Shown here: positions 13,501 to 45,952 of the stretch, one piece after another
Layout: every line of letters starts with the position of its first letter
Numbering within the stretch: the first letter of the stretch is position 1
Origin: Nageia nagi
Taxonomy: Eukaryota; Plantae; Pinophyta
Length of the DNA stretch: 64,000 nucleotides
Assembly (NCBI GenBank): GCA_050084985.1
Contig: JBITNC010000001.1
Coordinates: 171,430,001 to 171,494,000, forward strand
Direction: 5' to 3'
Made by a program: the position numbers and the translations under genes
Notes under the pieces: generated by a model
The model's database searches: none
Seen by the model: only the letters and a program-made list of their open reading frames with translations
What the model was told of the DNA's origin: nothing

Positions 13501-15471
13501 GATAATGGCTAATCCAAACGTAACAATTCTTTCTAAAGATGATGAGAGGTGCAAAAGTGATGATATTGTGTTTCTAAAGAATAGTCCAAACGAAAGTATT
13601 TTCTTTTTTATGGGAATCAACTCTATCCAATAACCTTCATAACCTCTATCTAGAAATAAAATAAATTGTTCTTATCCAAAAGAGGATAATATCATTAAGC
13701 TAAGTATATACTAGGATCAACTTGAAATTTTCTTCTCAAATCTTCAAATAATTTATATGAAAAATAACCAAGTGAATAATGAACACCATGACAAAGAGCC
13801 ATATGAGAAACCATATGTTCAACAACATAAATACCATCATAACACATGTAAACATGAGGATCTATAACGATATTGGAATGATATAGCTAAAACAATTACA
13901 AAAGCAACAATAATATCCTTGTTCGCAAATAGTATCAACTCATAGCAAAATGTAAAAATCAACAATAGTGAAAAATCTACATGTTGGTATGTTTTTCTTT
14001 CCTCGCCCAAAACATGCACAAGACTTGGAGGAAACAACGTTACTTGTTTCCGCTTGAAAGGACTGGTTACCCCAAGTGCTCACGTGGAATATGGACTCGG
14101 GCACAATAGTCAAAGATGCATGTTGTTAACCATATACAAAGTAAATACACCGTCGGGATTCGTTTTCCACGAAGAGGAAAGACTACAAATGTGAATGAAA
14201 GCGAAGAAAGATCACAAATGCAGAGATAAATGCATAGGAATGTGAATAATGAACTTATGAAGACATCACCAGTGATGCAATGTCTTGGCAGGTCATCTCC
14301 AGATTCATTAACAAAATGTATTCACTTATCAAGCCAAGCAACAAATAGCAAAAGGCTCAAGTTACTACTAGACAAGAGCAAGAAGCTGTAGGGTCTTGGT
14401 GGAAGACTGGATGGAATAGGGTGAAGGGAAATGACCAACACGTGAATACATGAATCTAACCGAATGACATAGAGATAAGCTATACGCCCCAGAATACATT
14501 CACTTACATGCAAACCATGCAATGAAATACTGAAACCTCTTCAAAAGATATTCAATCAACTTTTTGTAAAACTCATTGTTTTCAAAGAAAATGAACTTAA
14601 GTAGTAAAAATCACTCAAACCAACAAGAGAGTCTTACAGGATAATATGCATGATCCCACAAAGGATAATCTTCACAGTATTAACTTTATAGAACTATTCC
14701 AGAAAGAAATCACTTCCAATGATATTCAACAATATGAGCAGAAACATTCCTTACTTGAGTGTCATACCCTCAACATGATATGCAAAGTGTACTAGAGATG
14801 CAACAATACACAATCATGACATGCATAGAATCCCTTACACAGCAAAGTCTTATGCAATGGAATGCTGAAATCTTTTGTATGCAAAACCACATATATGTAA
14901 ATTCTTTATATGTAATCAATGTCATGCGGAAATGGCACATATGCTATATTCTCCAATTTTTGCAAATGCAAAAATCCTCCATCTTTTACAAATGCAAAAA
15001 TCTCATGCATGCAAAAATCCTCTTCTAAATGGCCCAAGTGGGGTATATATAGGCCACTAGAAGTGTTGCCCTAAAGGCATCAAATCTAATATGGTGTGCA
15101 CACACGCAACACACATACTGATACAAAATCTGACTATTCACAAAAAACGATGCAAGTGGCATTTAAAAGCTGACAAAATATAAATGCCACAACTGTAATG
15201 CATTTAATCTACCTATAAACTAAGTAAAAGAAAATCATATATGCAGTAAAAGTTTGACATTTGAAATGGCGGGAGCAAAACCTCATCCTTGCACCAGCCA
15301 AAGCCATTAATGAGTCTGACAGATTTGATTTGACGGCAACAAAACCTCATCCCTACACTAGTCAAATTGAGTAAATGAATTCTAACATAAAAAACACAAT
15401 AACAACCACTATCAATATGCATTTAATACTGGACTGGATAATCGCAAACGGAATCTGTGAGTGGATCAGAT

Positions 15472-18400
15472 CTAGGCCAGATTTGACCCAGTACCGGCGT
15501 AGTTCCACTCCTCGTTGGTGAGACCGTACGACTCAATGGTCTCTTCCAAAAAAGCTACGGTCTTCTGTACTCCCCTCGAAACCATGCCAACGATGCTGCC
15601 ATTCTGCCTAAAGTAGTCCCCAATCTTCCTGGACATAGCTTGCATCTAGAATCTCCATATGACCATCTGCCTTTCGTGGATGATAGGATGCCCTACTTTC
15701 AACAAAACGAGATCTTCGACATCTAGATTCTCCTAGATTAGGTTTTGGACCTCTGCCAATACTACTTATTTCCTACGCACGTTGTTATCCTCCCCTTGAA
15801 ATTTGAGTTGATATATGTACTTGCTCATCTGGTCCTCCACTCCTTTCTCAAGGGGATCTTGCCTTTCAAAACGGCATTACATTTCTTGAGTGCATTCTTC
15901 AGTCAGTCGTGATGGTACATAAATTCATGGTAGTAGACCAACTTCTCAGGTATGTCAACAAAGATCTGTTGTAGATGGGTGACATTTGGGAGATAACCAT
16001 CTAGCTTCTAAAGGAGGGCTATTATCTAAGATTTGAGTTCCCAGATCTCAACACCTTCCTCAAGTAGGCTATATATTTGATAAGATAACTTCTCAATGGT
16101 CTCCATCATCTCCTTCTTCAATAACTTCTCAATGGTCTCCATCATCTCCTTCTTCAATTGGTCCTTCATCAACTCCCATCTTTCATGGAACGAAGCTTGT
16201 TTCTTCAGGTCAACAAGGGTGGTGCTAACGGTTTGGAACTCCTTAATGATTTTCTTGTTGGCTGTGAGTTCCTTCTTGAGTCTTCTCACCTCCTTCTTCG
16301 CTTCATAACCTTCCTGTTCTATGAAAGCAACATTTTGAGTAACAATGTGCTTTTGGGCTATCAGACCTAGCTTAGTGGACATCTCAATCACACAGTCCTT
16401 GGGTCTTTGAGGATGTTTCTCCTTGGAGTAGCAGTGAGTGATGGAGATCTCTTTCCTTGTAGTAGAAACAAAGGTGTCTACTCTTCTAACTTTCTCACCA
16501 CCAGAGAGCTCTTCTTCATCCTTAGATCTAAAGTACTGATCAATTTCTTCGTTATGAGTCGTACTCATGCTCAAGGCTCTAAGGTAGGCATCTAAGTCAA
16601 GATTCAGATGTTCGGTTGTTGGCTTGAGAGGGAGGCTTTGCACCAACACTCGGCCTCTGTTGATATTCTTGACTTCTTTGGTCGAAGTGGTTTGAACAAG
16701 GGCAACTTCCTTACCTTGGTGCTCATCCTCCTTCCTCTTCTTTTGCTCCTCAATCTCCCCTTTGTCTTCTTTGTCTCCGTTGTTGCCACTTATTGATAGA
16801 CCTTTCTTTCGTGGCTGAGGGATCTTTCATGGCTGGTTCTCTTCACAGAAGGCTTCTAGGAAGACGAGGGTGACCTTTTTCTGTGTTTAATAGGAGAGGG
16901 TTTGGAAGAACCCACTTCTTTGGTATACTTCACTCCAATGATTTGGACTTCATCATCATAAGTCCCAACATCTATAATCTGGTTATCATCATTAAAGAGA
17001 GTTTCAATCTTCGTATCATCAGGTGCAGATGCACCTATGTCTACATTGTCTTGTCTGGGGTACTCTTCACGAGCAGCATCATCTGCATCATCATCATCAT
17101 CTTCTTCTTCTTCACCACGACTCTCGTCATCACTTCTCTGGCTCTTTGTCACATCCTCGGAGCCTTGTACAGTACGACCGGGTTCTTCATCTATTTCTTC
17201 AAAGGAAGAAGAACTAGAATGTTCGGAGGAACTAGAACTTGGCTGTAATGGGGGAACTCTTTCTCCACATCCAGGAGGACGAGTGGGTCTAGATGGAGTT
17301 TCCTCAACATGGAAATCATTGGCACAGGCCTCCTCCAGCATACTCAAGGGGCCCATATGGTAACCGGCACATCTGATATCAGCCACCACCTATTGGCTTT
17401 TCCTTGCTACATTAGCCACCACGTTGCGTTTGTTAGGTCCTAGGGCATGCTCCCCTAAAGCTCCTTGTCTCTTCCCAATGGGAAGCAAGGATGTTTTGGC
17501 TTGCAGAGGCACAACACTTGCAGAAGGAGGGGATGTCTTGATCCTCAATGGGACCTCTTTAGGTCTCTCTTTCATAGTTCTAGGTCTCTGAGGTGTCCTT
17601 TCTGCTTGGAGAGGAGCCTTATTCCTGCTCAAAAGAGCATCTATTCTCGCTATCTGCTCATCTCGCACATTTCCGTACTTATCCACATTCCCTAAAGATT
17701 TATGCTGGTAAGCAATAGGTTTCTAGAATGCGGCGCTATAGAAATGAGCAATCCCATCTCTAAGATCATAATTCCTAGCTACCATCTCCTTGAAGATGTA
17801 TTGCTACAGCTCCTTCTTCATGTTATTAGCCTCAACCCATGTTTGACAAACATAACTTGCAATTGAGATGGGCAAGTTGATGGTTGCATCCTTCTTTCTC
17901 CATACTTGTTCCCTCAAAAACAATAATTGTTTAGCAAATTCCATGAGAATAAGTCTATCACTGGCATATTTGGGTAGAAGGGGTTGTTCTTCGGAGCCAT
18001 AGACCCTGATGTAAGCATGATCAATATACTGCAGATAGAAATATGCATGTACGATGATGGCCTAAATAGCAACATCAGAAATCCTCTTGACCACCGATTC
18101 TCCTTTGATATCTTTGTAAATGGCATACTCCAACCGATCATTCCTCTTGTAGAAATGCTTAAACTTATTATGGTACCACCACTTCGGATAGATCCGCCAC
18201 ACTGGTTAAGGTATCTCTCATCCGCAAGCTCCCTTGATCTAAGCTTGCCATGCAACAACAGGTACACAAGATAGGAGTTCATATAGAACCTCTTGGAGGA
18301 GCCAAAGTAGGCTAGTTGGTGGTGCAAGGCATCATTGATTACCCTTCTCCATTTGCTGTCTCTCCCTGAGTTGATCATGACGATAAAGCCAATGAACTCT

Positions 18401-19065
18401 TTCTTGTACTTAGAGTTATTTTCTTGACATGTGACTCTGGACAACAAAGTGATCAACTTAACAACTGTGGGAAGGAACTTTTCCCTACGAGCACTAACCA
18501 ATCTCTGGCCCTGGATACCTTGGTAGTCTTCATACAACCATGTTCTGATATAGTCCCCAGGACGGGCAGTGGAATCATGGAATTCTTCTGGATTTGCCAA
18601 TGTGTAATCGTCTCTATATCTTCTCCAGCCAAAGGCAGCTTCAATCCCTTTCGAAGAGAAGTCCATGATCATGTTCCCTTCAGTGTCCAAGAGAACTCTT
18701 TTATCATATTTGCAGCGCTTGGCTATCTCATAGCACAACTCAGGAAATGGAACAACAAAAGGCATCATAGTGGCATTAAACAGTCCACAAGAGTGGATGA
18801 TCTCATCTGATAACTCCTCCTTGTTGATGGAGGCAATGGAGGCTATGGTCTGGATGGGGTCAACATTCCCCCAATCTATATCACCAACAAAGGCGAATCT
18901 CCCTTTGAACTTGGCTTCAAGGAGCTCTAGTTTCTCTCTTTCTCGAAATTCTATTTGACTCTCCCTCAGGATTCTCTCCATTTGGTCATCTGTTACATGT
19001 CTTTCAAAAAGCTGCCCCTGAATCTTTCTGGCCTTGAATGGGGAAGGCCTCACCTTAGAAGTCAT
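15472..19065 (-). pseudogene. Degenerate LTR-embedded ORF, copy B (~1200 codons)
   Basis: ORFs 17914-19065, 17390-17686, 16856-17389 and 16026-16649. The C-terminal HERQMVIWR..AFLEETIESYGLT is shared with copy A. Confidence 0.85.
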
Positions 19066-21008
19066 CTTTAAACTCTGGAAAATGTGTAGAAACTTGCAGA
19101 AAATGCTGAAAATCTGGTTGGGGATGTCTTAGCACCAAATTGAATGTGTCTTAGAGAATGCAGAAAAAAATGGCTAGACGTGCAAGTCTAGGCTGCAAAA
19201 GCGCCCTGTAGTAATAAACTTGGAAGTGCCCTCTTATAGAAACTGCATGGAGGGTTTGTGCATGGCACACTGCATATATGCCACTTGTCTCTTTAATCTT
19301 TCAAATCCTGGCTTCTTCCACACTTAGACAATTTCAGCTCACAAGACAATTTCAGCTCACAAACCCAAGGGTGCACGGGTTAGAGGACATGCTTTTTCAC
19401 TGATGGAAAACATGTGAACTAGCTTCTGATGGGCAAACACATTACTTAGTCAATTGAGGTCAGCAAGATTCCATAATGAGGATCAAATCACCACTCAATG
19501 CTAGGGCACACGGATTCGGGCATGTACTTTTTCATGTTCCACAAAGCATGTGCCTCAAATTTGTATGAACAACTGAAAGGAGAATGATATGCACCTGTTT
19601 TTCATGTATACTTAGCCAAATTCTTGAATCTGGACCTGGGCACACAGTTTCGGATGAGTCCTTGAAGCACTAGTAAGATAGCATGCGCATAGGTCAGTTT
19701 AGGGTCAACTTCGTAAAAAAGATGCGAAGTGAATTACAGAAAATGGACCCTGAGATCTAGCTCACCCTCTTCAAAAATGGCTACTAGCAGTCCAAACGCC
19801 TCTTCAAACCCTTATTTCTCTTGGGCGCACCGATTTTGATGAGTCCTTAAGCATGTTCCAGAAATGGTGCGACTAGGTATCTTAGTTCAAAATGATATGA
19901 AGTGGTAAAATGATAAAGGGGTGACTTGATATATATAGTCTTCAAACTTGCCCGTGTCACCTTTTGGTTGGCTAGAAATGAGGTCAAATGACAGAGTTAG
20001 GATGATGGGCGCACCGATTAGAGGATGTGCAATAGCATGTCCCAGAATACATGCACCAACTAGCTTGTGTCCTTCAAAAGACTTAGTCAATTTTCATCAT
20101 GCTTGCAAGCTCTTGCAACTTGGTCACACCTTTTGAGAGGGGTGCAAAAGCATGTACTTGAAAACATGCACTTGGTCCTCTTCCACTTGGATTTTATACT
20201 TAGTCAAAAGTGCTCCTGGGCCAGGATGTATGGAAACGGGCACACCAATTTGGGTGAGTGCCTAAGCACACTCCAAAAACCATGCGCCTAGTCTGTGGCA
20301 CACTTTCCAATGCAATGGATTTAAAAATAACGAAAATGAACTTGAAATTTGTAATCCATAACAGGGCGCACTGTTTAGGGGACACGCTTTCTAGACTTAA
20401 CTCCACACAATGCTCCGAATTCAACCAAACAAACTAAATGCTGAGATTGACATTCCTTTTATAGATTTGTAGGGGTGGACAAGTGTCATGCAATGATTGG
20501 TGCATGTGAAGGTCTAGTGCATTTGGACACGCCTATCTCTCTCATAATGGACATCCAGATTCAACACTTAGCCAATGTTTGCGTCTCAAAATAGGGCACA
20601 CCAATTTGGGGACATGCAAAAGCATGTGCCAAAAACCTTGCGCTCAATCCTCCTTGTCAATTTCCTGAAATCTTCGAAGTGTTGAGACACCTTATCATCT
20701 TTGGCGCACCGTTTTGGGGACGTGAAAAAGCATGTCCTTGAAAACATGCGCTCAAGCTGCTTTAACATTTTTCTTGAAATTTTTTTAAGTGCTAAGCGTA
20801 CATTTCCTGCCCTGGGTGTTGTTTAGAGGACATGCAAAAGCATGTCCCTCAAAACATGCATGCAAGCACAAAATGCAATTTTTCTTCTAGAATGCCCTCG
20901 ATAACACAATGCAAGGAGGGGATGCAATTTCCACAAAATGACCAAGTGTAATGAGGCATGAATGATACAATTTGAGGCTGAAAATGCATGACTTAACCCA
21001 AAAATATG

Positions 21009-22002
21009 CAGTATGAAGGTGTTGTGTTCTAAATGAACACTTGTGCCAAATTGCAACCCTTAAATCCACAAGGGCTTCCAAAAACCTCAACCACACCTTC
21101 CAGGCTCCAACGTTGAGACTCAAGGGCTCCCAAGAACTCCATAAGCTTGACGTCAACCGTCCTTACTAATCAATCATTAACAAGAGAAATACAAATAGCA
21201 CATTCACCCAATACCAAGCATGAATGCAATGATCATTCACAACACAATAATGAGACAGGAATCCTCAATGATATATTTATTCAATGGAGACAATTACATT
21301 ACCCAAATGGCAGTCGTGGCCTCTTCAAGATGGCCAGATATACACAATCAATCACAAACGCAACTCAGAACAATGGGACAGATTCACTCCCTTAGCCCTC
21401 GACTCCTCCCCACTAAAAGGGCTCTCCTCGAACATTGAAAATCCAACTAAATGGAAGGAATGGAACCCTCGGATGCTATTGGATGGACTTGATGCTACAC
21501 CAAGTCAAGACAATTGGGATCCATCAACCCAATCACCCTCTAGATGCTCCGTCTAGGTAGAATTGCTCAGCCCTGGCTAAGACTTGCGGTCTGAAAGTCA
21601 AATAGAAGAAGTATAATCATCAATAGCTGTCCTCAAACGAGTCTCCAAGGTCTATTTATAATCTCATGTTGTGTTCCTACCTTGAAGTCACCAATTCTCC
21701 TTTATTTCCAATGTTGACCAGCTAAGGGGCCCATAATGCCTAGCGTGGGTGTTCAAGTGTCCAAACATGCCACGTGGCTCCTCCTTATGCTCAAATGGCT
21801 AGCGCATGCCCCAGAGGTGCCACACATGCATGAAGGTCACAAGAAGGATGATGTGGGGCCTCAAGGTATTGCTAGGTCTCCTGGGGTAGACGTGGGGCCA
21901 CTCTTGGCTTGACACATGCATAATGAGCCACAGGGAGAAGATGTCCCACTTGGGGCTCACAATGGAGGTCAATGACCCAATAGTCTCCTATCCCGGGTTA
22001 CA
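21009..22002 (-). mobile_element. Unrelated ~1-kb solo-LTR-like insertion in unit B
   Basis: Absent from unit A. Ends GGGTTACA, flanked by ATATG on both sides, minus-strand TATAAATAG near 21652. Left terminus lacks TG. Confidence 0.45.
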
Positions 22003-22262
22003 ATATGGAAGAATAACATAAAGTAAACCTATATTACAATGGGATTCTCAAGAATCCACTAAAGTTGTCAGGAACACAAAGGGGACGTCACAAAAGGAGG
22101 GCGCATGTTCCATGGTACATGCAAAAGCATGTCCTTCAAAACATGCGCCATAGGTGAAATGACCAAATTTCGACTTGTTTAAACATGGAGATGCAAATTT
22201 GTCATGTTTCCCTTCCTCTACTCTATGATGCATGCATTTACTTAGAAAAATTCGTTCATGCT

Positions 22263-23400
22263 TTTTGTGTCTGCACAACACACCCCAAAATACAAGATTT
22301 TGGGGAACCTATTTTTGCAAAGGCAAAGAAGTGCATTGCCTTGAGATTGGCTTTTGGCTACAGATAATTCATTCTGAAGAGTGCAAACATGATATTAGGG
22401 AGCGATTCAAGGAGATCTTGCGATGAAGACCCTGAAGAGTATCAAAGTATCCAGCCACCAATTTGGAGCCAAAGAGCAAGGATCTAAGACAAAGTATCAG
22501 AGCATGGATTTTTGGTCTAGAGTGCAATCAATAGAGATGGCGTTGTTTTTCAAAGTTTTAAGCTCACAAGTGCCACGAATGACACAAATGAGCATTTTTT
22601 GTCAAGTTTAAGTCCGGGAGCAGTGGATGTAGCTAAGGTGACAAAAATAAGTGTTTTTGTCAAGTATGAGCCCGGAAAGCTCAACAATGGTCATTATCAC
22701 GAAAAAACGCGTTTTGGTCAATTTTGAGCCCGAAAGTGGTCAGTACAGTAAAGATGTGTGTTTTTGCACCATTTGAGCCTGGAAAGCTCGGAAATGGTCA
22801 AAAATGCAAAGTTGAGCTCAAAATGATCAAAAATGCTCAAAAATGCCAAGAATGATTGTTTTTTCACACTTAACGCCTGGAAATGTTGGGAATGATGGAA
22901 AATGACGAGTTTGGGCTTGGAAAGGCGGAAATGGTTGTTTTTGCACCATTTGAGGTTGGAAATCATAAAAAAATATAGAGATTTAGTCCATGATGGATAG
23001 AAAATGTGAGTTTGAGTACCCTTTAGCCTAAGGCACATTTTTCCAAGGTATTGAAGACCCAAATGAGGGAAAAATGTTGCATGTTTCTCATAGATAAATG
23101 TAAATGGTGTTAAAATTCAAGTATAAGAGCATTATTGGAGAGAAGGTGAATTCTACCACAAGTAGGACTTGAAATTTTCGATTTTGACCAAACCTAAGGC
23201 ACTCATCCTAGGCACAGTTTTTCAAGCCTATGGGAAATCCATAGAGATGATTTTTGGCGCCTAGATTGTGGAGAAAAGGTGGAAATATATCGAAATTCAA
23301 ATGTAAATGCATAGATGGGTGGAAATGATGGTTCTAAGGCACTTTAGGTCTTGAAAATTTTTATTTTGAGCAAGTTTAGAATTTTTAGATTTTTGAAGGA
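22263..23400 (+). mobile_element. 5' part of a plus-strand LTR of the 42134 family
   Basis: Colinear with 42134-43350. Breakpoint approximate. Confidence 0.8.
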
Positions 23401-24299
23401 AAATCCAAATTTTTTGAATTTTGAATTTGAAATTTTTTGAGTTTTCTCAGCCCTTAGATTCTTTTTGGATGCAAAAAGGTGGTTTTTAGGAGTTTGTGTT
23501 AACCAAATTGCACAAATGATAGATCAAAATGGTGTAGAATCACACCACCTATCTCATAGAAGTGAAAAATTGCAATTTTCGGCACTTTTAGGGACCAAGG
23601 AGGCTAGGCGCAAGTTTTAGGATGTTTAGGCAAGTTTTGAAAAATGAAAAAAATGGGGATATCTTGCAAAACCAGCGCCTACCTTTTAAGGGGGCAAAAT
23701 TAGTTTTTGAGCAAATTTGCAAGAGGCAAAGATGCTTGCATTTGGATTTCGAACCCTACCTTTCTTTCCAATTTTGTTTTTGGGATTTTTGAAATTTCTT
23801 GGAAAATTTTGGAGCTCTCCCATTGGCTGATCCAATTTTTGGGATTTTGAGGGAGTAGATCAAATTTTTTCTAAAAACTTAAAACATGAAAGAGATGCAA
23901 AATTGGATTTCCCATACTCCTAGCATAAAAAAATTTGATTTTTGAGCAAAAATAAGGGCTTGCAAGCTAGACAGAGGTTTTAGGGACTTTGGCATGTTTT
24001 TTGGAAATTTAGAAAATGGGGGAAACAAGACAAAACTGCCACCTAGCTTTTTGAGGGGGTAAACTTGATTTTTGTGCAACATTGCAAGAGACAATGTTGA
24101 TCTCCTTTGAATTTTGCACCCTACCTCACTTTCCTTTTTTGATTTGACCAATTTTGAAAAATTTGGAGCCCTCTCATTGGTCAATCGAAATTTGATGATT
24201 TGAGGAGGTAGATTTCACTTTTAAAAAAAAAAGACAAATCATCAAACTGTTGGGATGAAAACATTTCCTACCGGCCTATGATTGCTTGCACACAATCAG

Positions 24300-25583
24300 G
24301 ATGAGATTTTGGGGACCCTATTTTTGCAAAGGCAATGAGGAGCATTGCCTTGAGATTGGCTTTGGGCAACGAATAGTTCATTTTGAAGAGTGCAAACATA
24401 ATATCAGGGAGCGATTCAAGAAGATCTTGCGACGAAGGCCTTGAAGAGTATCAGAGTATCTAGTCACCAATTTTGGAGCCAAGGAGCCAGGATCTGAGAG
24501 AGAATATTAGAGTAGGAATTTTTGGTCTAGAGTGGAGGGAGTGGAGATGGGGTCGTTTCTTCAAAGTTTTAAGCTCACAAGTGCCAAGTGTGATGAAAAT
24601 GAGCGTTTTTGCAGAGTTCAAGTCCAGGAGTAGTGGATGCAACTAAGATGACAAAAACAAGCGTTTTTGTCAAGTATGAGCCCGCAAAGCTCAAAAATGG
24701 TCATTATCATGAGAAGACGCGTTTTGGTCGATTTTGAGCCCGAAAGTGGTTAGTACAGTAAAGATGTGCGCTTTTGCATCATTTGAGCCCAGAAAGCTCG
24801 AAAATGGTCAAAAATGCAATGTTGAGCTCAAAATGACCGAACATGCTCGAAAATATTGAAAATTTGAACATTTTTGTGCCTTCTCTTTGAAAACTCTCGA
24901 GTTTTAAGAGAACTTGTAAACTTTTCTAAAATGTTTGAATTGTCTTAAATTGTTGCTAATTATCACTTGCTTGTTAAATGTTTAGTATTCTAAATTGACT
25001 CTCTTAAGACATCTTCTTAGATCTTTTGTTCAAGACTATCCACCTTCACTCACGTTTAGTCCACTTGATTGCATCGGTCCTGTTCGTAGAGTACGGACAA
25101 TCAATCCTGCTTCTCGCTCATCTTTGAAATGATTGGACAATAGTTGTTCATTTCAAAGACTTGATTGAATTGAACAAGATTTCTTAACCGATCTAAGAGA
25201 AAGAACATTTAGACAATGCTGCATTGTGATTACCTCTTTGAAGTCTAGCCAGCATTCGACCTCATTCTCACTTTTTCTTTTCTTTATTTTATACTTTCTT
25301 TAAAACATATGGCAACTTTTGAACTATTGTAAGATAAAACACCTCAATCCCTACAAAAAACGTGAGTTAACAGTTATTACCTCTGCTACACCACTCAGCT
25401 GATTCGCAACAAGACCTACAATTTAAAGCTCGTATTAATGACATGAGCTTTCCAATAGAAACCTTGGGGTATCAATCCTTACAAACGGAGTTCAGTAATG
25501 CGTTCTCACCTACATGCTGGGTCGCTTTCTTGTCTTGATCTATAGGCAATCGCCGAGTAAGAGGAAAGGTTTCCTTCCCAACA
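24300..25583 (+). mobile_element. Internally deleted plus-strand LTR nested in U5 of unit C
   Basis: 24300-24855 matches 42165-42720, then jumps to sequence matching ~45230-45947. Ends GGTTTCCTTCCCAACA. Confidence 0.75.
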
Positions 25584-26484
25584 AAAAGCACCCAGCATTT
25601 AGGTGAGATAGCGTAACTTACCTCCTCTTGAAAGGACTGAAACCCCAAGGTTTGTTCGTGTTCCCGTTGAAGTAGCACAATTTTATATAGTTGGGGGAAT
25701 GAACTCAACTGGTTTGATAGAGGTAGAGGCTATTAACTCACATTTTTTATAGGGACAAGGTGTTTTTGCGATGATAGAAAGTTGCTCTGGTTTTGTAAAA
25801 AAAAAGAATGTAGGAAAGATAAAATAAGCAAATAAAAACAGGAAAATGGTGAGAATGATCCAATATTGGTTAAGTCACAAGGCGATTTTCACAACAAAGC
25901 ATTGTCTAAAATGAGACATTTTCTAATCGATTAAGAAGTTATCGTTCATTCAATCTAGTTCAAGGTGAATGACTTTTGTCCAATCAACTTTGAATCTAGA
26001 GCATACGGTAGGATCGATTGTCGATACTACGCGAACGAGACCGATGAAATCAAAGAAATTTAGCATAGAACACACGCTTTGGAATCATGTTTGAGCGAAA
26101 GCTTCAAATAAGATATAAAAAAGAAACAAATTCAAAATAATTTTGTTTTAAGTGTAGAAGAGGCAAAAGATGGTAGACTTAAAGCAATTCGAAATATTTT
26201 TTAAATTTTGAACAACTATTTTTTCCTAAAACTCTCAAGTTTTCAAAGAAAAAAAACGAAAATATTTGAATCATGAAAGAAAACCACAAACTGAATCCCA
26301 TTCACCACTCCACATATGACAAATGTCTTGAGCAAATAAGCAACCACTTTCTATTAGCTTATAAAAGAGTTACAAAAAAGTTTCCACAATTTTCTTCTTT
26401 CACAAAAAATTTGAACTTCTCAAAATTTTCACTCTTAGAAAAGCTCCAAACTTTCGTTCTTACATAAAAGTTACCCCTAGGGTA

Positions 26485-26492
26485 TATTTATA
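26485..26492 (-). promoter_or_regulatory. LTR TATA box of unit C (downstream of the embedded ORF)
   Basis: CTATAAATATACC in the same context as 56584-56596 of the ORF-less LTR. Confidence 0.65.
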
Positions 26493-26678
26493 GAATTTCT
26501 AGGGTTTCCAAGTGTTTCCCTAATTTTATAAGAAAATATTAAAATATTACATATTTGCCTCCTACGACTAAGTCAGCTGACTTTTGGCAAGCTGACTAAG
26601 CACGAGTAGGGTTAGTCGAGTTTTGGTGCTCAACTTTCCCGGCTAACTAATTTACAAAATTTTCAAAAATGACAAAAA

Positions 26679-29600
26679 TTACGATGGCTGATTTGCGGTT
26701 TGCACATGTGATGCGATGGTGGCCTCGAAGTTCATGCCCATAACGGTTTCTCTATTCTTGACTCCAATGTTAAGAATTTCCATAACTCCATTTGCCAATA
26801 GATATGCAATGATGGTTTTTGCAGTCTTCTTCATCTCGCTACACCATACTGCCATGTCGTTGCCATATTTGAGCTGCTTGCCGGATATGAGAACATTGAT
26901 ATCTTCAGTCTTTGAGGTAAGTGGTAATCATCAGCTAGAACTCATCTATTACTGTAGCGTAATCTCTGTTATGTCCATCTTTCTTGATCAATCTTACATC
27001 AAATTGGTATTCTGCTAGTTGTTTCCCCATATCTACCTTAAAATTTGCCCAAACTCGGATGAAATCCTAACACTTTTGAATAGCGTAGAACAACCAATCA
27101 TACTGGTAAAAGAATTGATGATAGTATTCCATTAGTGTTCGCATGCCAAGAATCTTTCTTCGTAGTTCGTGCATCATTTGATAATTGTTGCCCCACCTGG
27201 TTATTAGTTCATGGATCCTATCTTTTACAAAGAATGATCCATTTTCCTCGATAAAGAAATTAGTTATTCCTAGGAATAACTCTTGGATGGCTTCTTTGGT
27301 TTCTCTTACGCACTCTTCTTTGATCACTTGAATCCCAATATTCAAGAAATTTGCTTCTTGATGTCTTCAACTGTTAGGTTAGCAACTCGTATATCAACGG
27401 TCAACCTTTTCTGTCCAGCCAATTCTCTTTTAAGCTCCTTGAGCTCTACATTTTGTGATGTGTTCTCTGTCAACGCTACAACATTGGTGACGATTGCATG
27501 TTGCCTACCCAGAGTGCCTATCTTTTTTCACAACTCCTCTCTCGTTTCCACCACTAATGCAAATTCCCCATTGGCATTTCTTTTCCTCCCTACAGAAATG
27601 GTATTGGTCACGATGGAGTCATCCTTCATTGAGACGTAAGTGGCTATATGTTCAAGTTCAATATTTGAATCTTGATCGATTTCAATGTCAGCACGGGCTT
27701 CAGATGGGTGGTGTGCTCTCAAATCGTTCAAAAGTGCCTTCATGTCGAAATTGTAACCAAGTTCAGGATCAGCAACTGTAGCCACCTGTCTCTTAGGTTT
27801 CCCTTGATGTTCATCCTCTCTCCTCTTTTTCCTCTAGTCTTCATTTGCACCTTCATCCTCCTCATTTCCTCCATCTCCTTCTGATGAGGAAGCTATTCCC
27901 TTGGTTGCTAAGGTCCTTCGTGGAGCAATTGGTGGAGGTTTTCTCTGAGGTGGAGGTGTCTTCTTCGGTTGTTGAGGTAAGGAAGCCCGTGTAGACGTAG
28001 GTTTTGTAGCTTGTATGGGTTCTTCCATGGTAGGAGGATCTATGGTCGATATCTCCTCGATTGATGAATCTGATTCATTGTCTGAGATATAAGGTATTTC
28101 TAATATCTGACCATCTTCCAAAGGCTCTCTTAAGAGGTCTCCTTCGTCAATCTCATATTCATCCTCACTATCACTGGAAGGAGGAGCAGGAGAACTAGGG
28201 CTAGAATAGTATAATTGTCAATCTCGGGATGGACCTCTGGGAGGGACTTTCACCAGCTTCTTCAAGCATTTGTATGGTGTGAAGTGCTACCAATCTCTTT
28301 AGTGCTTTTCATCTCTTGTGATAATCCTCGTATGGTCTGGTCAATAGTTTGCACTGCTTGAACAATGAGTGTAGCATATTGACCAGACTATCCTTGTGTT
28401 AATCTCACAGAAGGTGAGATTGATGGAGGCACGTACGGAATCGGGGATTCCCTTTAAGGATTACTAAAGGATGTATCATGGCTACTGCATTCTCCTCTTG
28501 CAGACCTCTCTTCTTCTTCTTCTTGGTTGCTATCTGCAAAAGCTTCTCTTCCACTGCCAAATCCCTATTTATCTTGCTGATCTGCTCTATATCATTTACA
28601 TTTCTATACCTTTCGAGCTTTCCTAGGGATTTGTGGGGGTAATCGGTTTGCCATGTTTTCTTGAAAAATGCATCAATTACACTTTGGGGGTCATAGTACT
28701 CTACTGCCTGTTCTACTGTGAAGCCGTAGTATGCCAACTCCATCTTCATTGTTTTAACTTGTCTCCAGGACATGCATTCGTACTCCCTTATTCTAATAGG
28801 TAATTTACAAGGTGGCACCTTTCTTACACCAAACTTTCTCGTCCAGGTACGACAAGTGTCTACAAAGTTCCATAAGTATAAACCGATCACTTGCATAATG
28901 AGGAAGTCTGTAAGGTGGCTCAGTTGACCTGTAGACCCTGATGTATGTGGCATCCATTTCTTTGAGATAGATATCTACATGTCCTTGAAGAGCTTGGATT
29001 GCCGCCTCTGAAATTCTAGTCATATTGGCGGTCCCCTTTATTTCCTTGTATATTCGGCACTCGAATCCGTCATTCATCATTTTAAATTCGTCCCATCATC
29101 TTTCCAGCTGAAATCTAGGGTAGCTCCACCAGATAGGCATTTCTAGGTCAAACAAGTACTTGGTATCTACTATGGTGGATTTTCTGTTCTTGCCATGTAG
29201 GAGCAGAAATACCAAGAGCTCATGTAGAATCTTTTGGTCTCTACGAGCTAGGACAATTGTTGGGCTATACAATCACTGATCGCCTTGGTCCATTTGATTC
29301 CTTTGCCTCATCTAATCTCATGTATGAAGCCGGCGAACTCTTTCCTGAATCATTGGTCGTTCTCTTGCCTTGTAATTCTGCACAGCATGTTGATAATGAT
29401 AGAGACTATAGGATAGAAGTCTATCCTCCTTGGTTGGCTTCAGGCCTTTGCCTTGTAGTCTTTGCACTCGTCAACCAACCAATCTCTTATCAGGTTCCCC
29501 GGCTTTGTCAGGCTGTTAAAGAATTTGACAGAGTCCATCATACTGAATATGATTCCCTCATTGTAACAAGCAAAAGCGCTCTCTATTCCTTCCATTGTGA

Positions 29601-29955
29601 AGTCTAGTATCTTGGTGCCTTCATTGTCATTAAGAATCCTCTCCTTCTTATTGTAGTATCTGGCTACTTCAAGGCACAATTCTAGGAATGGAGCAGTATA
29701 TGGGATCCTATAGGCTTCAACAATTCTGGATTGAGCAAGTGTGTCATTGAGCAACTGTTCATATGGGATTTTGGCCATCTTCTCTAATGACTTAACGGGA
29801 TTAGTGGATGCCCAGTCTATGTCTTTGATCTGACAAAGGCCGTCTACTAATGTGGTCGTAGGGAAAGCAGTTCTCCCTTCTTTTTCTAGGGTGATCGAGT
29901 TGATCTTCATAAGTCTCTCCATCTAAAGTTCCTTGTTTTTCTTAGCAATACTCAT
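26679..29955 (-). pseudogene. Degenerate LTR-embedded ORF, copy C (~1090 codons, most divergent)
   Basis: IKDIDW, PFLELCLEVA, ILDFTMEGIESAF and IYKEIKG..RISEAAIQA..YIRVY..LPHYASDRFILME match copies A and B. Confidence 0.85.
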
Positions 29956-30799
29956 TGTTTATGCCTTGTGGAACACAAGGTGTTAGAAGTGATACTGGGT
30001 ATCTCTGGAGCAATTTTGGAGTGAAAAAGAGATAAGTCAAATTTTGGCCTATTTTTGGGATTTTTCAAAAGCTAAGTGTGGATTTTCGAGAATTTTAAAG
30101 TTCATCGAGAGTGGGAAACGAATATATGGCGTGTTGGCAAATAAATCTAGGAGGCTTGTGGCCAAGTCTCAAAGAAAAATTTCGAATTTTCGGTGTCCAA
30201 ATTAACTCGCTGTTTTTTTAGCCCATGTATTCATTTTTTGACAGATTTTGGCAGCTTCGAAGCTTGGGAAGATGGGGATGCAAAATGGGTTTTCAAGCTT
30301 CGTTTTTGGGAGGTGAATGATAGAGGCTGCTCTCCTATATAAGGTCTATCACTTTGGTATTCACTTCGAAGTTTGAATCTTTCAAAATTTGGGAGTTTTT
30401 TGACCTTGAAAAAGCATTTTTGTATTTTTTCACATTTTTTCGAAAGCTGGAAAATGGTGAAAATGGCCAAAAGATAGGGGGGTTTGAAATTTGGAAAAAT
30501 TTTAAAAATTGGATTTGACCTAATGGATGGATAGAGGATGAGATTCTAAGATTCTTGAGAAATTTTGAAAAAAGTTTGGCTTATTTTGGATCTTGTGAGC
30601 AAATTTGAAGTTTTTGAGCATTTTTGTGAGGTTTTGTGAGGATTTTTCTCAAAATGGGTGCATGGAGGCTCAAGGAGAGTGTTTGTGAAGCAAATGAGAG
30701 GCTTAGGGGGCATTTATAGGTTTTTTGTGCCTTTTGCACGCTCTTTAGTGGACTTTTGACCTAAAAAGTGCTCTAATGGTGCATTTTGCATGTTTCTTA

Positions 30800-32300
30800 A
30801 GGTTTTGGAGCCTTCAAACACTCCATAGGCTTGAAAATCAGCGCCTAACTTTTGGAGGCACCTTCTTTGGTCAAAATTGAAAAATTCAAAGTTTAAACAT
30901 CCTTATTTTCTCCTTCTCCACCCAATCAAGTGCAAAAAATTGAATTTTGGTGGATTTTGGGACTTTCTCCTTGCATCTAGGCGCCATTTTTCATTTTTTT
31001 TGAAGTTTCCAATGGCTTGCAAACCTGCGCCTGACTTTTTGGGGCATTTCTAGTGCTCAATTTCAAAAATTTGTAAGTTTAAATGTCCCTAGAAAGCCTT
31101 TTTCCATGCAAACATGTAAAAAAAATGGAATTTTTGCAAAATTTGACTTTTCCTCATGCTAGACGCCAATGTTCACTTCATTGGATTTAGAAAAATAAGC
31201 AAACCAATGCCTAGAATTTTAGGCCACTTCCCTTGCTCAAATCGAAAATTTGCAAGCTTAAATGTGCTAGAAATCATGTTTTCCTTGCAATTGACCCTTT
31301 AAACTTGGATTTTGAGCAAAATTTGCAAAATTCTTCATCCTAGGTGCTAGATTTCACTCCATTGGATTTCCAATGGCATTAAAAACTGCACATGCCCTTT
31401 AGGTGCCTTAAAATTGCTCAAAATTGGAATTTTGTAGTTCTAAATGTGCTCAAAATGGGGTTTTCCACCTAATGGACATCTTGGGATGAATTTTTAATAC
31501 ATTTTTCACTTATCTCTCCAAGTTAGACGCCATTTCACACCTCTATGGATTTAGAAACATTAGAAAACCTGCACCTAGCCTTTGAAGGGTCAAAACTTGC
31601 TCAAAATCCAAATTTTCAAAACCTAATTGTGCTAGAAATCATGTTTTACACCTTGTAGACCCTTCAAACTTGAATTTTGACCTAAATTTGTCAATCTTTT
31701 ATGATTCTAGGCGCTAGATTTCATCCCATTGGATTTCCATAGCTCTCAAAACCTGCGCCTAGCCTTTAGGATGCCCAAATGTGCTCAAAATTGAAAATTT
31801 TGAGACCTAAATGTGCTTATAATCTTGTTTTCCTTGGTCCCAAGTACTTAAACTTGATTTTTGGTCAAAAAAACATTCCATCTTGTCATTCTAGGTGCCA
31901 TTTTTCACTCCATTGGAATTGGAAAACTCTAGAAACTTGTGCCTAGCATTCTGGGGGTCTTTACTTGCTCAAAACCAAAATTTTTGAGACCTAATGTGGC
32001 TTAGAAACATCATTTCCACTTATTCATGCATTTAGATTTGATCTTTGATACATTTTACCTTTTCTTCACTTCCTAGGCACCAAAATGCACTTCTATGGAT
32101 TTCCCATAGGCTTGAAAAACTATGCCTAGGCTTAGAGTGCCTTAGACTTGTTCAAAATTGAAAATTTCGAATCTTAAACATGATAGAATTCATCTTATCT
32201 CTCCAAATATGCTCTTAGACACGAATTTTGATGTCATTTGTATTTACTCTGAGAAACAAGCACCATTTTCCCTTACTTGGATCTTCAGTAACTTGGAAAA
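30800..32300. repeat. U3 tandem array, ~120-bp degenerate unit with CTAGGCGC / GCGCCTAG motifs
   Basis: Recurring TTGCTCAAAA..CTAGGCGC..CATTGGATTTCC..GCGCCTAG. Same array at 43100-44480 and 55210-56000. Confidence 0.75.
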
Positions 32301-34853
32301 ATGTGCCTTAAGCTAAGAGCACTCAATCTTGCACTTTCGATCCATTTCGAACTCAATTTGTGCATTTCCGACCACTCTTGGCATTTCTGAGCTCAATCTC
32401 GATCAAAATGCCCTTTACGACACCTCCAAGCTCAAACTCTACATTTTCGATGATTTTTGAGCTCAGATGGTGCAAAAACGACCATTTTTGCCTTTTTGGG
32501 CTAAAAGTTGTCATTTTCTATCATTTTCGGCACTTTTGGACTCAAAGTATCCAATCCTACTCATTTCTACCATTTTCAAGCCCTTATTGTGAAAAAACAA
32601 CCTTTTGTAGCATTTTCGAGCATTTCTGGCCATTCTGGACTTAACTCGTCACTCTTGGTCATTTCTGAGCTTCCCAAACTTACATCGTGCAAAAACGCAC
32701 TTTTTTACCATACTGACCATTTCCGAGCTCAAAAGTGACCAAAATGCACTTTTCTACCTTGTCCTTTTCTAGCTTTCCAAGGTCAATTTTGACAAAAACA
32801 TCTATTTTTGTCATCCTTGTCATTTTCAAGACATTCGGACTCAAACTTGTCACCTTGGATACCTTAGCGCCCAAATTATGCAAAAATGCGCCTTTCTGTT
32901 GCGTTAGGTAACTGTGAGCTCAATCTCTGCAAAAATGTGCCCTTTTGTCAACTCTGTCACTCTTGCGCTCAAATATTGCAAAATGTGCCCTTGACTACTC
33001 TATTGGCCACTTGGTGTAAAACTCCCTTCCTGGTTGCTGCTGTGATCCAAAATTGCATACTGCTTGATGTCACTTGAAACTGGGCCATGAATGGGCTCTA
33101 GACACGCTAAACTGCCTTGATGCCTCTAGGGTACTTGCGTGCATTGCTTCATCACTTGGCCACTCTGATTCTGCATTCTAACCGTCGTCTAGTCATCTTC
33201 AGGCAATGTCATCCATTGCCTTCAAAAGTAGGGTCTCCAAAATGCTGCATCTTGGGGTGTGTTGTATGGGCACAACACAAACTTGTATGGAATCCAATCC
33301 TACACCCCTTTAAGGTCAAAATTTCCATTTTTTTCAAATTTGGGGCTCAAGAAGGGTAGATGCAAGTTTTGAGGCATTTAGGCCATTTTCCAAATTTTGG
33401 AATTTGAGGGAAACAAGGAAAACTAGCATCTAGCTCTAAGAGGGTCAAAATTTGCCCAATTTCAAAAATTCCAAAAGCAAAGGTGCTTAATTCTTGTTTT
33501 GCCAAATTTTCATTTTGACACTTTTGGCTTGCTACCCTTTTGCTCATTTTCTTGTTTTTCTCACTTTCGATGGAGCAAAACTCATCGAAATCGTGAACTT
33601 GAAAGACCAATTTGATGTAGAATCACGATGCCCATGCTCATGAGCTCCAAAATTGGTATTTCGGATCAATATGAGCCTTCCAAAAGGTAGAAGCAGGTTT
33701 TGAAGAGAATAGGCCATTTTTCGAAATTTACTGAGTGAAAACATGCAAAACTCGCCCTTAACTTTTCGAGAGTCAAAAATTGAGTTTTTTCAAAATCTTC
33801 AAGAGTAGAATGGTCTTAATTTGTCATTTGGCACCACATCTCTCTCTCAAATTTTCATTCCGAGCATTTTGGAAAAAACTCAATTTTCGGGCTCAAAACA
33901 AAGCTTTTTGAAGGCCAAAACGCTCATTTCTTGATCCTGGCCCACAAGGGTGCTCAAACTTGTTTTCCTTGTTCATCCTAGGCTATACTGTACATTTTCG
34001 ACCTTCTCCGTCTTTACGGGCCCAAACGGTGCATTTCTGGCCATTTTCGACATTTCCAGGCTCTAAGTATGAATTTCGACCATATCTAGGTTTTCCAGAC
34101 ATTTTCGAGCTCGAACGGTGAAAAAACAATCATTTCTAACACTTCAATCTCAAAGTCTATATTTTCGACCTTTCAGGACTCAAGATATGCAAAAACGCTC
34201 ATTTTTGGCCTTCTCGGGCATTTCTAAGCACTTTGAGCTCAAACTTGCATTTTTGGTCATTTCCGAGCTTTTCAGGTTCAAATCATGCAAAAACACACAT
34301 TTTCAGCATAGTGACCACTTTCGGGCTCAAAATTGACCAAAACGTGCTTTTCTATGCTACTAACCATTTTCTGGCTCCTCGGGCTCAAAATTGACAAAAA
34401 CACGCTTTATGGCTGTAGATGCCCTTTTCGAGCTCAATTTGTGCAAAAACCCACATTTTCATCATCTTAATTGTATCCATTGCTCTCGAGCTCAAACTCA
34501 ACGAAAAACGTGCCTTTTGTCATCTTGGCGCCTTTGTTGCTCAACTTTGCCAAAACAACACCTTTTCTGCCTTGATGGCCATTCACTCAAAACTCCACTA
34601 TCTGGTTGCTGTCGCAATCCCAAACTCTGTTCTCTGAGACATTGCTCAAGACCGAGCCCTAACTTGGCCATTGGCTAAGCTGAACTGTTTCCATGACTCC
34701 GAGGCATGCTCATGCATTGTTTGATCAATTCATCATTCTAGGTATCCATATCGATCGTAAGTTGATCGCACCCAAGCAATGTTGCTCATTGCCATTTGAA
34801 AAAATTGGGTCCCCAAAATGCTGCATCTTTGGGTGTGTTGTGCGGGCACAACA

Positions 34854-39354: not shown

Positions 39355-39679
39355 CTGATGGCGAAAAATGAAATACCCAAAGCCAAAGTAGACAATAATG
39401 AAAGGCAAGATTATGGGTGTAACTGTAGAATATACAAGGCCAAGTAAAAAGTATAGTTGCATGCGAGGGAGGGCTTCTGCAAGTGCAATACCACCTGGAT
39501 CCATAGCCTTCACCCTATCTTCCTCAGTCTTTACAAAAAGAGAGTTCTTTACATGGAACATGATAAGTGGAACCAATCGTAAAATCTCTCCAGCAATGCC
39601 AGCCCACCCATCAATCATGATGTAAGTTATAAAGAATGTTGCTCTCAGTGGGATTGATACTCCAAGCTGTTTTATCTTT
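39355..39679 (-). CDS. OSCA1: OSCA/CSC1 internal exon (TM6-TM8 region)
   Basis: GVSIPLRATFFITYIMIDGWAGIAGEILRL..QLYFLLGLVYSTVTPIILPFIIVYFGFGYFIFRHQ. ttgcag acceptor, CAG/GTAAAC donor, ends in phase 0. Confidence 0.95.
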
Positions 39680-39954: not shown

Positions 39955-40215
39955 TCAGTAGGAGAATCGCCAAACTTCTTGAGTTCATCCTTTGGATTAA
40001 AATCTGAAAGTGCTGATCCCGTGATCAGAGAGCCAAGAAATACAGCTATCAAAATGAAATAATAGTATTTGCTTGCTGTATTTCTTTCAATTTCTGAAAA
40101 TGATGAGTAACCTTCAATTTTGGACATTGTCATCAAAATTGTTGGAAGGATAAGGAGAAATAATTTCAAAGCCAGTCCTGGTAGAAAACCTTGGATGAAT
40201 GACTTTACCAACTTT
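39955..40215 (-). CDS. OSCA1: OSCA/CSC1 internal exon (TM4-TM5 region)
   Basis: KLVKSFIQGFLPGLALKLFLLILPTILMTMSKIEG..ASKYYYF. tacag acceptor and GTAA donor; phases match both neighbours. Confidence 0.95.
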
Positions 40216-42133
40216 CTGTACACAAAATTAGATATAAAAACATCAAATAACGCCTAAGAGTCTATATATTTTCAATAGTCCACTCCTTAAATAAACATTC
40301 AACAAAGCACAGCTTCTACCATAAATATTCTTTATTATAAAACTAGCATGTTATCCACACAACAGCATTGACATTAAATATGATAAAAATATCATAAATT
40401 AGATTAAGACATAATATTTTGTTTGCTACTGGTTAAAGTTGAGTAGTTCTGGAAGTGAACATAACATAGACAATAACCAGGAAAAGCGTGGAAGATATGC
40501 TTCTTATGGGGTATAAATAGAATAAGCATAAAGACACAAAATTTAAAGGGGGCTTCTACCTAGGCTAATGGTTTTGTACAAACAAATAATTACACATGAC
40601 AATTGGGAGCAACAACTCGTGTATAATCATATCATGGTTACAAAAAAATTCATATGCATTTTTGAAATTAAGAAACTGGTAAATTAGAAAATCAAAGATA
40701 AGATATTCACCCAAATAAAGATTATAGGATAATTGCAGACAATTGAGACGTACATGACATGTCAACAGTTTCGATATTTGATTTAGCACTTGTATAATCA
40801 TAAGGATACAGAAATCAAATAAGAAGCTGCAAATGCAAACTATCATCTGGACATATTGAAGAAATCATTAAGAAAAGCATAACACTTGTGTGTTGATCTT
40901 TCAGTGAGAACTGTAATAAATGAAATATCAGTTTTATCATGATAATGGTGTTATGGAATCGAGAACAATGGCATAAATACGCTACAGGAATTGCACAAGG
41001 GACTCAGCATTCCTACAACTGATTTGTAATACTTTGTTGATCAGGAGCTCCATGGTCCTCTCTCCAACATGTTGGGAGGTATTTCTTTCCCTCGGTAATT
41101 CTCTGAAATCATCTTAGGCTTTAGGACTCCCCAGCATCATAGTCAGGAAAGCTTTACCAATTCCCTCATTTGAAAAGGACTGTCTACCTCCAAGGCTCTT
41201 GTCAAAACTCCTACTCAAAGCTCTGACATCTATAGGTAACTTGCAAAGCAAAATCCAATGCTTGTATAAATGTCTCTGTGTAGGGATGTATTATGTGTGT
41301 GGTATCCCTCTTTGGAATCAGTCCCAATGGAAAAAATGTATGGAATATGAGATGATAGGTTGTTAAACAACATTTTTTTTAATAAGGTATAGAGTTTGTT
41401 CATAATATTTGTGTATATATTTAAAGATCATATTTGGGTTTTAAAGCATAAAGACAATACTAGAAAGTGAGAAACTACACTTTTGAAATGGAAACGAATA
41501 CTTGGTTAGATACCAAATTGGTCACCACTATAAATCATTGTCTAAAAAGTTCATCCTTTCCGAATCAGTTAAAGGGATCTCATCCAATTGTGCAAACAAA
41601 CAACTATTGTTTGAGTTGTTCCAAAGAGGAGCGGGAAGTGCAACCAATTGTGAACAATCAAATGGACATGGTGGAAGATCGTGGGAAGAACTAGAGTTTA
41701 GATGAAATTCCTAGTTTGATGTCATGAAATAGGAAACAAATTCAGAATATTTCATCTAACATGCATGCTATGAACCAAGAAACTATCAAATACTAGTTTC
41801 CAACACTTTAGAAAGGTAAAGCAATGATACTTTCCCTAAAACTCGTGAATTTTAAAAGGAAGGATGCAAAAGTGTCAAACGAATAATGATAATCCTTAAG
41901 GATCAATTCACAACACCACAAATGGATAATAAAGCTTGATCTTTGCCGTAACCACTTTGTACATAGCTTATAAAAGAGTTATGCAAGAATACATCAATTT
42001 GCTCCTCTTTTACAAAAATTTCACTTTTTTACAAAATGCTAGTTAAAATGAGACCCCTTGCCTCTTATTTATAGGCATTTTGGGGGATTTTTCTAAAAAA
42101 CTATTAGTGGAAGAAAAAATGCTAATTTGAATG

Positions 42134-45947: not shown

Positions 45948-45952
45948 TAGAT

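Follow-up and report, generated by a model that had tools for sequence, protein, structure and literature searches.

Plant long terminal repeats (LTRs) are usually treated as non-coding, and the extra open reading frames (ORFs) of plant retrotransposons are catalogued internally; reviews, in the excerpts to which this and all later citations refer, place them in the internal region (PMC7264820, PMC6317226). An accessory ORF inside U3 is described from mouse mammary tumour virus (MMTV), where sag/naf is present in both LTRs and has its own U3 promoter (PMC9412291). Among Tat elements, internal extra ORFs encode a plant mobile domain (PMD), in some cases together with a coiled coil, and gymnosperm lineage III already has this domain (PMC4408406). 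Gypsy elements also carry the PMD known from MAIN (PMC5418596), and VANC and MAIN have one common fold (PMC13547354; 10.1101/2024.04.02.587720). VANC proteins bind short motifs that are amplified as tandem repeats and differ between related families, and they bring about a loss of methylation (PMC5735166, PMC10398659). Here we analyse 64,000 nucleotides of the Nageia nagi genome (contig JBITNC010000001.1, positions 171,430,001 to 171,494,000; hereafter the window), in which one unit, D, combines features of these systems in a probable solo LTR.

Taken as a whole, we think it reasonably probable that D is a single LTR-bounded insertion, likely a Gypsy-type solo LTR, with a large broken gene upstream of a conserved TATA box, and that this gene has an N-terminal domain of predicted VANC/PMD fold and encoded a likely DNA-binding accessory regulator of its own family's LTRs. 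We tentatively read the lineage as Gypsy, OTA-type.

A gene-bearing LTR unit and its relatives

The following features make up D and the LTR into which it is inserted (H).
24248-33277, minus strand: unit D, a probable solo LTR that bears the gene, with ends TGTTG...CAACA and a length of about 7.74 kb when the nested fragment E is excluded
24243-24247: left copy of the target-site duplication (TSD) CAAAC
33278-33282: right copy of the TSD CAAAC
30480-33277, minus strand: 5' part of the D U3, collinear with C LTR 42134-44812, with a degenerate tandem array of about 183-bp period at about 30820-32320
26679-29955, minus strand: broken gene of D, in the sense orientation, 1,092-codon span
26486-26493, minus strand: conserved LTR TATA box, present also in gene-less C3 (56584) and F (42074) and in B (15052)
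25584-26485, minus strand: R/U5-like region of D, collinear with C LTR 45100-45892, with a conserved U5 box at 25639 and a donor-like GAG/GTAAGT at 25621
24290-25583, plus strand: E, nested inverted LTR fragment of the C family, internally deleted (C LTR positions 33-591, then 3289-3814), without 5' tip and TSD
24248-24289, minus strand: last ~40 bp of the D U5 with the CCCAACA terminus, of marginal score in the 300-bp block comparison
33283-34853, minus strand: 5' half of host LTR H, gene-less as far as seen and F-like
23385-24242, minus strand: continuation of H past D, truncated

Two gene-less relatives serve as references.
42134-57502, plus strand: element C, with a gene-less 5' LTR at 42134-45947 and TSD GAATG/AAATG
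within C: two primer-binding sites (PBS; 45953, 46051), a gag-like and protease-like region, a nested Copia element and part of the 3' LTR (55210-57502)
41070-60013, minus strand: F, gene-less solo LTR hosting C, about 3.57 kb without C, TSD CAACA/CAACT

The initial annotation of this DNA described D as a unit with TGTTG/CAACA ends and a perfect CAAAC duplication, and both are borne out: the termini lie at 33277 and 24248 on the minus strand, and the duplication on either side is an exact 5/5 match (chance of a 5-bp match 0.0013, from window composition). The two halves of H that flank D join at a single position, 58746, of the related LTR F, and because both meet there D is a single insertion. 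What had been read as one continuous unit nevertheless contains the inverted fragment E, which had been missed. The absence of PBS, gag and pol also stands. A window scan places PBS sequences only behind the 5' LTR of C, and the sole coding homology in D is to the genes of two further units, A and B. Judged by its sequence, D is likely the solo LTR of a Gypsy-type retrotransposon.

In comparisons of 300-bp blocks, D 33277-30480 aligns with C LTR 42134-44812 and D 26377-25590 with C LTR 45100-45892, with the order kept. Because these blocks map in order on a 5' LTR that is followed by a PBS, the sequence flanking the D gene is LTR sequence on both sides. The claim that the flanks match a genuine LTR followed by PBS and gag accordingly holds for the collinear blocks and for the PBS, which occurs twice; the gag label is putative and position-based, the gag-like stretch having no Pfam match. 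Between the flanks, from 30277 down to 26678, 12 consecutive blocks score against the C LTR within or near the shuffle range.

This interval contains the gene, with a conserved N-terminal domain of ~430 codons, an acidic and proline-rich middle, a coiled-coil-like stretch and a conserved C-terminal part. An ORF of ~1,090 codons ending ~190 bp before the TATA box had been proposed; the span (1,092 codons) and the distance (186 bp, to 26493) agree, but no frame is open today. Clear stops in the reading frame number 10, the frame changes at least 5 times, and the longest stop-free in-frame piece among those listed is 160 codons. Units A and B had been described as having the same layout, which is correct for the homologous gene and its position, whereas both units are incomplete.
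13982-22262, minus strand: unit B, an LTR with the gene from a second subfamily; intact at the 3' terminus, interrupted by LTR G ~75 bp inside its 5' end, without a TSD
15472-19065, minus strand: broken homologous gene of B, 1,198-codon span
397-5931, minus strand: unit A, an LTR with the gene from the subfamily of B; intact at the 5' terminus, truncated at ~397 immediately ahead of the TATA box, without a TSD
802-4162, minus strand: broken homologous gene of A
22263-23380, plus strand: G, truncated 5' part of a C-family LTR inserted in B

Gene homology extends along the full length among D, A and B. A scan of metagenome contigs (416 pattern matches, three loci) yielded further gene copies, L001, L002 and L003, whose DNA is 75-80% identical to B over the gene and the region behind it, as far as reached. 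The protein of D is only 35-39% identical to the A/B-type copies, and the position of the gene is nevertheless the same. In 8 of 13 gene pairs, with frames picked by best tblastx score, the ratio of nonsynonymous to synonymous substitution (dN/dS) is 0.11-0.29, the other five pairs being saturated at synonymous sites; because of these low values, the gene was under purifying selection while the lineages spread. The gene is broken now and, by these signs, functional in the past. A profile search at E<=0.001 gave 154 relatives, mostly fragments. A crude score marks a charged, heptad-like stretch in the C-terminal third of the B protein and a weaker one in D; the coiled-coil-like part of the B gene (16085-16158) holds an exact 36-bp in-frame tandem duplication. 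We rejected the idea that A and B are the two LTRs of one element, because the pair has reached synonymous saturation and is separated by a host exon.

The ends of the gene-bearing units bear on whether the gene is part of the LTR. Four of the six units (D, B, L001, L003) reach the TATA region and three (D, B, L001) the CCAACA terminus. The distance from the TATA box to the LTR end is 0.92-1.07 kb in D, B, C3 and F, and the U5 box is common to 6/9 ends scanned (D, B, L001, E and both C LTRs). At 13982 precisely, contigs from two public runs (8 and 14 contigs, with an agreement of 0.44 and 0.43) leave B and pass into long stretches of unrelated sequence, as an element end would predict, so the B terminus is real.

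One alternative makes the gene a normal 3' extra ORF of the internal region, with D, A, B and the copies on contigs arising by deletion or recombination and mimicking one LTR. Athila-type and TatII elements do often have sense extra ORFs on the 3' side (PMC6317226, Additional files 4 and 5). Such an origin would need two deletions that left the order U3, gene, TATA box, U5 with no duplicated part of the LTR, separately in two subfamilies as distant in protein as D and A/B. The initial annotation had named a gene lying once between two shorter LTRs, in full-length relatives, as grounds for rejecting its own proposal. A scan for the LTR start motif found eight true starts (six in the window, two in L003) and one palindromic false match, never inside a gene-bearing unit and none between gene and TATA box in D, B, L001 or L003; the scan missed the damaged starts of G and E. 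Among the best-supported rows (best 24 of 3,818 and best 24 of 923), loose contig ends between gene and TATA box are short and variant-like, with an agreement of 0.78-0.96, unlike the terminus at 13982.

A nested origin, in which the gene block is an independent MULE-like insertion or captured gene within the LTR, was likewise sought through terminal inverted repeats (TIRs) or a TSD of the block itself, the second ground for rejection named earlier. None credible was found around the block, the best candidate being an AT-rich 28-nt arm at 75%, and none of 14 window segments gave a Pfam transposase match. MULEs do carry VANC and some PMDs (PMC5418596, PMC5735166), nested insertions are abundant in the window, and C has unrelated sequence at the gene site. 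Against this, six units of two distant subfamilies have the block at one and the same position, and the block was under purifying selection; a single ancient capture later inherited with the LTR would amount to an LTR-borne gene again. We regard an independent nested insertion as very improbable.

Several observations nonetheless weigh against a gene that belongs to the LTR. Both PBS-followed LTRs seen, that of C and that of an element nested in L003, are gene-less, and both termini with a TSD are present in only 1/6 gene-bearing units, D being the sole complete one; these two points favour the internal-ORF alternative. No PBS stands behind the gene-bearing 3' termini (0/3 units: D, B, L001), and no PBS consensus occurs at the B end among the best 24 of 923 loose-end rows. 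Because the two LTRs of a newly inserted element come out of reverse transcription alike, a multi-copy gene inside an LTR should have a copy in each; no full element carrying the gene in both LTRs was seen in the window and contig loci. All six gene copies are broken. The ~300-bp counterpart of the gene region in C and F scored within the shuffle range in DNA and protein comparison, and C holds no gene remnant there that would point to loss of the gene by simple deletion. Finally, the 3' LTR of the element nested in L003 follows a T-rich tract, with no purine tract, so that absence of a polypurine tract is non-diagnostic here. Weighing both sides, we consider it highly probable that the gene is truly LTR-borne, and the internal-ORF alternative improbable.

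Candidate promoters, predicted protein fold and upstream arrays

Three further features of D concern expression and the encoded protein.
30712-30719, minus strand: upstream TATA-like box CTATAAAT, ahead of a pyrimidine-rich leader, candidate promoter of the gene
29965-29981, minus strand: putative splice acceptor, pyrimidine tract plus AG, 9 nt before the ATG
29212-29955, minus strand: part of D homologous to the predicted VANC21-like (PMD/MAIN fold) domain; the assignment is partly circular, as the profile holds part of D

An LTR-borne gene could lie in U3 or in R/U5. If genomic RNA started at the upstream TATA box (30719), the gene would fall in R/U5 as the first ORF, like a 5' extra ORF. 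This box stands 760 bp before the D ATG and is a good TATA box followed by a pyrimidine-rich leader; TATA-like boxes occur upstream in A and B too, and the downstream TATA box is missing from the 5' LTR of C. The upstream box, on the other hand, is not found in the LTRs of C or F, while the downstream box is kept at its constant distance from the LTR end in gene-less LTRs as well, and minus-strand strong-stop DNA would need to exceed 5 kb. We therefore regard a position in R/U5 as improbable, and, given an LTR-borne gene, U3 is strongly preferred. The earlier proposal of an accessory gene in U3 is sustained to the extent that the gene lies within a TSD-bounded LTR unit upstream of the conserved TATA box and that three independent contigs repeat the layout; the element with paired gene-bearing LTRs that it implies was not seen.

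Acceptor-like pyrimidine tracts with an AG lie 8-9 nt before the ATG, with 12/15 pyrimidines in B, L001, L002 and L003, which as B-type copies are not independent, and 10/15 in D; the feature is absent in A. As background, 14 of the 1,496 ATGs in the window have an acceptor-like site at >=11/15. In D, C5, B and L001, a GT resembling a splice donor stands ~20 nt behind the U5 box. These putative sites allow an env-like spliced message from the 5' LTR to the 3' LTR, or a leader intron behind the TATA box at 30719. Because the splicing route needs a full element, a solo LTR could express the gene only from 30719, and the self-contained cassette envisaged in the initial annotation would depend on that box.

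The N-terminal domain was modelled twice with AlphaFold2, from a relative (P0026, pLDDT 73) and from the first 285 residues of B (pLDDT 78), and aligned to 48,161 chains. For both, rank 1 is VANC21 bound to DNA (9LNK): Z 8.0 over 230 residues at 4.5 Å for P0026 (next Z 4.6), and Z 5.9 over 201/285 residues at 4.8 Å for B (next Z 4.0 over 79 residues). Both matches span most of the domain, begin at the same VANC21 residue and have prior support in the fold common to VANC and MAIN and in the PMDs of Gypsy and Tat elements. They are of middling strength, however, since Z below 8 is common by the tool's own warning and the two models overlap in their alignment rows. At E<=0.001, Foldseek found nothing for either model in PDB or BFVD, and Pfam PMD (PF10536) had no match in 14 window segments or 32 relatives; the Pfam matches on the gene and its relatives are scattered and below cut-off. 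Searches for relatives found none in PDB sequences, in prokaryote genomes or in viral contigs (by protein and by LTR-end/PBS pattern), none in a weak search of long proteins of 500-2,000 aa, and none in the ESM Atlas for P0026 and P0001, where a blank is uninformative. On the models, we consider a VANC/PMD fold of the N-terminal domain probable.

The DNA beside the gene differs between the subfamilies. Upstream regions of D and C carry a degenerate array of ~183-bp period with TTTGAGC 12 (D) and 13 (C) times, against 0 in A and B; in A and B the pattern is reversed, with CGCATG and CTTTTGCA repeated. The top counts of array 8-mers are 7-9 vs shuffle maxima of 4-5. Because a VANC-like fold is combined with subfamily-specific arrays that lie beside the gene and resemble VANC targets, the protein was most likely a DNA-binding accessory regulator that would act on its own family's U3 arrays.

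Large LTRs often contain tandem arrays, which leaves room for an LTR-borne gene whose protein had another role, such as tethering integration to chromatin, exporting RNA or limiting its own element by silencing in the manner of MAIN/MAIL1. MAIN and MAIL1 have the same fold and promote transposon silencing (PMC5418596, PMC13547354), so the fold does not fix the function, and the functions of plant extra ORFs are given as unknown in PMC7264820. A sequence-specific DNA binder accounts better for arrays whose motifs differ between subfamilies together with the protein, and the sole solved structure matched is that of a DNA-bound anti-silencing factor. Another role is a serious possibility, though we hold it to be somewhat short of even. 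Within the regulator reading, an anti-silencing role is suggested only tentatively by the structural and array comparisons.

A history compatible with these features can be outlined. An ancestral sense extra ORF behind pol would have become part of U3 once plus-strand priming shifted upstream, and reverse transcription would then have copied the gene into both LTRs in each cycle. Recombination between LTRs would have left D as a solo LTR retaining the gene, and gene-less LTRs such as C and F would be derived forms in which D-type arrays persisted and on which a protein supplied in trans could act. The protein, translated from a spliced message that joins the U5 donor to the acceptor or from a transcript begun at the upstream TATA box, may have bound the U3 array motifs and countered silencing as VANC does for VANDAL. 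In its boldest form, a Gypsy lineage would have moved a VANC-like anti-silencing gene into U3 beside the arrays that its protein binds, so that each LTR, solo LTRs included, is a module of regulator and target, the protein and its arrays diverge in parallel between subfamilies, and LTRs without the gene benefit in trans; we put this forward as a speculative and rather unlikely extension.

Gene-less relatives and the surrounding window

The window consists of introns of a CSC1/OSCA-type channel gene, 24-28 kb in length and packed with nested LTR elements.
63322-63642, 39355-39678 and 11558-11791, minus strand: exons of the CSC1/OSCA-type channel gene, with Pfam RSN1_7TM or PHM7_cyt matches

An additional exon-like stretch at ~39970-40100 was spotted by eye only. 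Members of the LTR superfamily repeatedly insert into each other's LTRs (window 22263-34853 and 41070-60013): D in H, E in D, G in B and C in F, with another in L003. This may reflect a target preference within the superfamily. Another gene-less superfamily LTR at ~60267-63034 (minus strand) has its own repeat motif, AAGATTTTGT, in 8 copies, and its end resembles the element nested in L003. The upstream region of B at ~21150-22090 (minus strand) probably contains a nested unrelated solo LTR, part of which matches the LTRs of an element nested in the L003 gene copy.

The 3' LTR remnant of element C is 91.6% identical to the 5' LTR (2050/2239). The two PBS copies (45953-45969 and 46051-46067), ~100 bp apart in a short tandem duplication, are the only tRNA-type matches in the window. 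The protease-like stretch matches Pfam Asp_protease_2 at E 4e-4, below cut-off. A Copia element at ~49400-55210 is nested in C, its cut 3' LTR joined to position 1515 of the C 3' LTR; no 5' LTR copy of it was found in the window. The only reverse transcriptase and integrase in the window and contig loci are those of this Copia element, and none of the gene-bearing family was found there, so that the Tat/Ogre-like label of the initial annotation is not established. Under the 5-bp TSD criterion of Tat/Ogre (OTA) Gypsy lineages, the duplications of C and F match at 4/5 each and that of D exactly.

The small element of the same superfamily in L003 (1293-8467, minus strand) has ~4-kb gene-less LTRs that are 91% alike, the same PBS as C and an internal region of ~3.2 kb, with a short stretch in common with C and no reverse transcriptase or integrase frame among those listed. 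The PBS of this family we take to be of tRNA-Asn type, and on that assumed assignment it fits TatII or Athila better than Ogre or TatIII. No tRNA gene that could name the primer occurs in the window. A plant small RNA published as miR3711 (PMC8747174, table 2) is exactly complementary to the PBS; it terminates in CCA and is likely a tRNA 3' fragment, presumably of tRNA-Asn.

Comparison with known systems

A plant gene located in an LTR was not found in the full-text literature searched, which leaves subscription papers and Repbase entries outside it; a phrase search returned MMTV and a maize gene inside an element body. The portions available of PMC13468544, PMC6431247, PMC3485330 and PMC13477047 make no mention of one. 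PMD extra ORFs are thus already known as internal genes, and a position inside a plant LTR is possibly unreported.

TatII and Athila of REXdb would agree with the presumed PBS type of the present family, having Asp/Asn types, with the Asn type in 15% of TatII and 12% of Athila (PMC6317226). TatII also has sense extra ORFs at both ends, 5'F in 23% and 3'F in 26% of 27 elements (PMC6317226, Additional file 5). This could lower the novelty of the present gene, because an ORF in both LTRs would produce such a pattern; the excerpt of PMC6317226, however, does not place extra ORFs of TatII or Athila in LTRs. ORF0 of rice Retrosat2, RIRE3 and RIRE8 resembles our case as an extra ORF of elements with LTRs >3 kb and many solo LTRs, but is a separate ORF upstream of gag-pol in Tekay chromoviruses (PMC3485330).

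Extra ORFs with a PMD, found in Tat elements such as gymnosperm lineage III and Ogre, probably belong to the same fold family, have a coiled coil behind the domain and occur in elements with 5-bp TSDs and long LTRs (PMC4408406, PMC6317226). They are reported as internal and mostly antisense behind pol, whereas the gene here is sense, lies inside an LTR and lacks a Pfam PMD match. The PBS, non-Arg if our presumed tRNA-Asn assignment is right, also differs from that of Ogre and TatIII, which is of Arg type (PMC6317226). With the gene, the LTR reaches ~7.7 kb, vs 1.9-6.5 kb given for Ogre (PMC6431247). LTR finders with a length cap would miss such LTRs, or the gene would be mis-annotated as a host gene.

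MMTV shares the U3 position with D and differs as a vertebrate betaretrovirus with an immune-modulating protein, in contrast to an unrelated protein of 1,100-1,200 codons in a plant retrotransposon (PMC9412291). Each replication would duplicate a gene of 3.3-3.6 kb located in an LTR, and solo LTRs would retain it; LTR recombination would therefore eliminate the element but not the gene. If the protein also countered silencing there, the arrangement would bear on how large gymnosperm-type genomes go on amplifying LTR elements despite silencing.

VANC21 of VANDAL21 is the top structural match (9LNK) and, like the protein described here, is encoded by the element, has a coiled-coil region and is accompanied by family-specific arrays in nearby non-coding DNA (PMC5735166, PMC10398659). 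It belongs to a eudicot Mutator-like DNA transposon, the sequence identity is 6-8%, and the binding and demethylation described for VANC are predictions for the protein considered here. Through the fold match, a retrotransposon extra ORF gains a candidate mechanism that can be tested: anti-silencing by sequence-specific action on adjoining arrays. If the boldest reading is true, D would represent an LTR-encoded protein gene in a plant retrotransposon and a retrotransposon counterpart of the VANDAL/VANC system.

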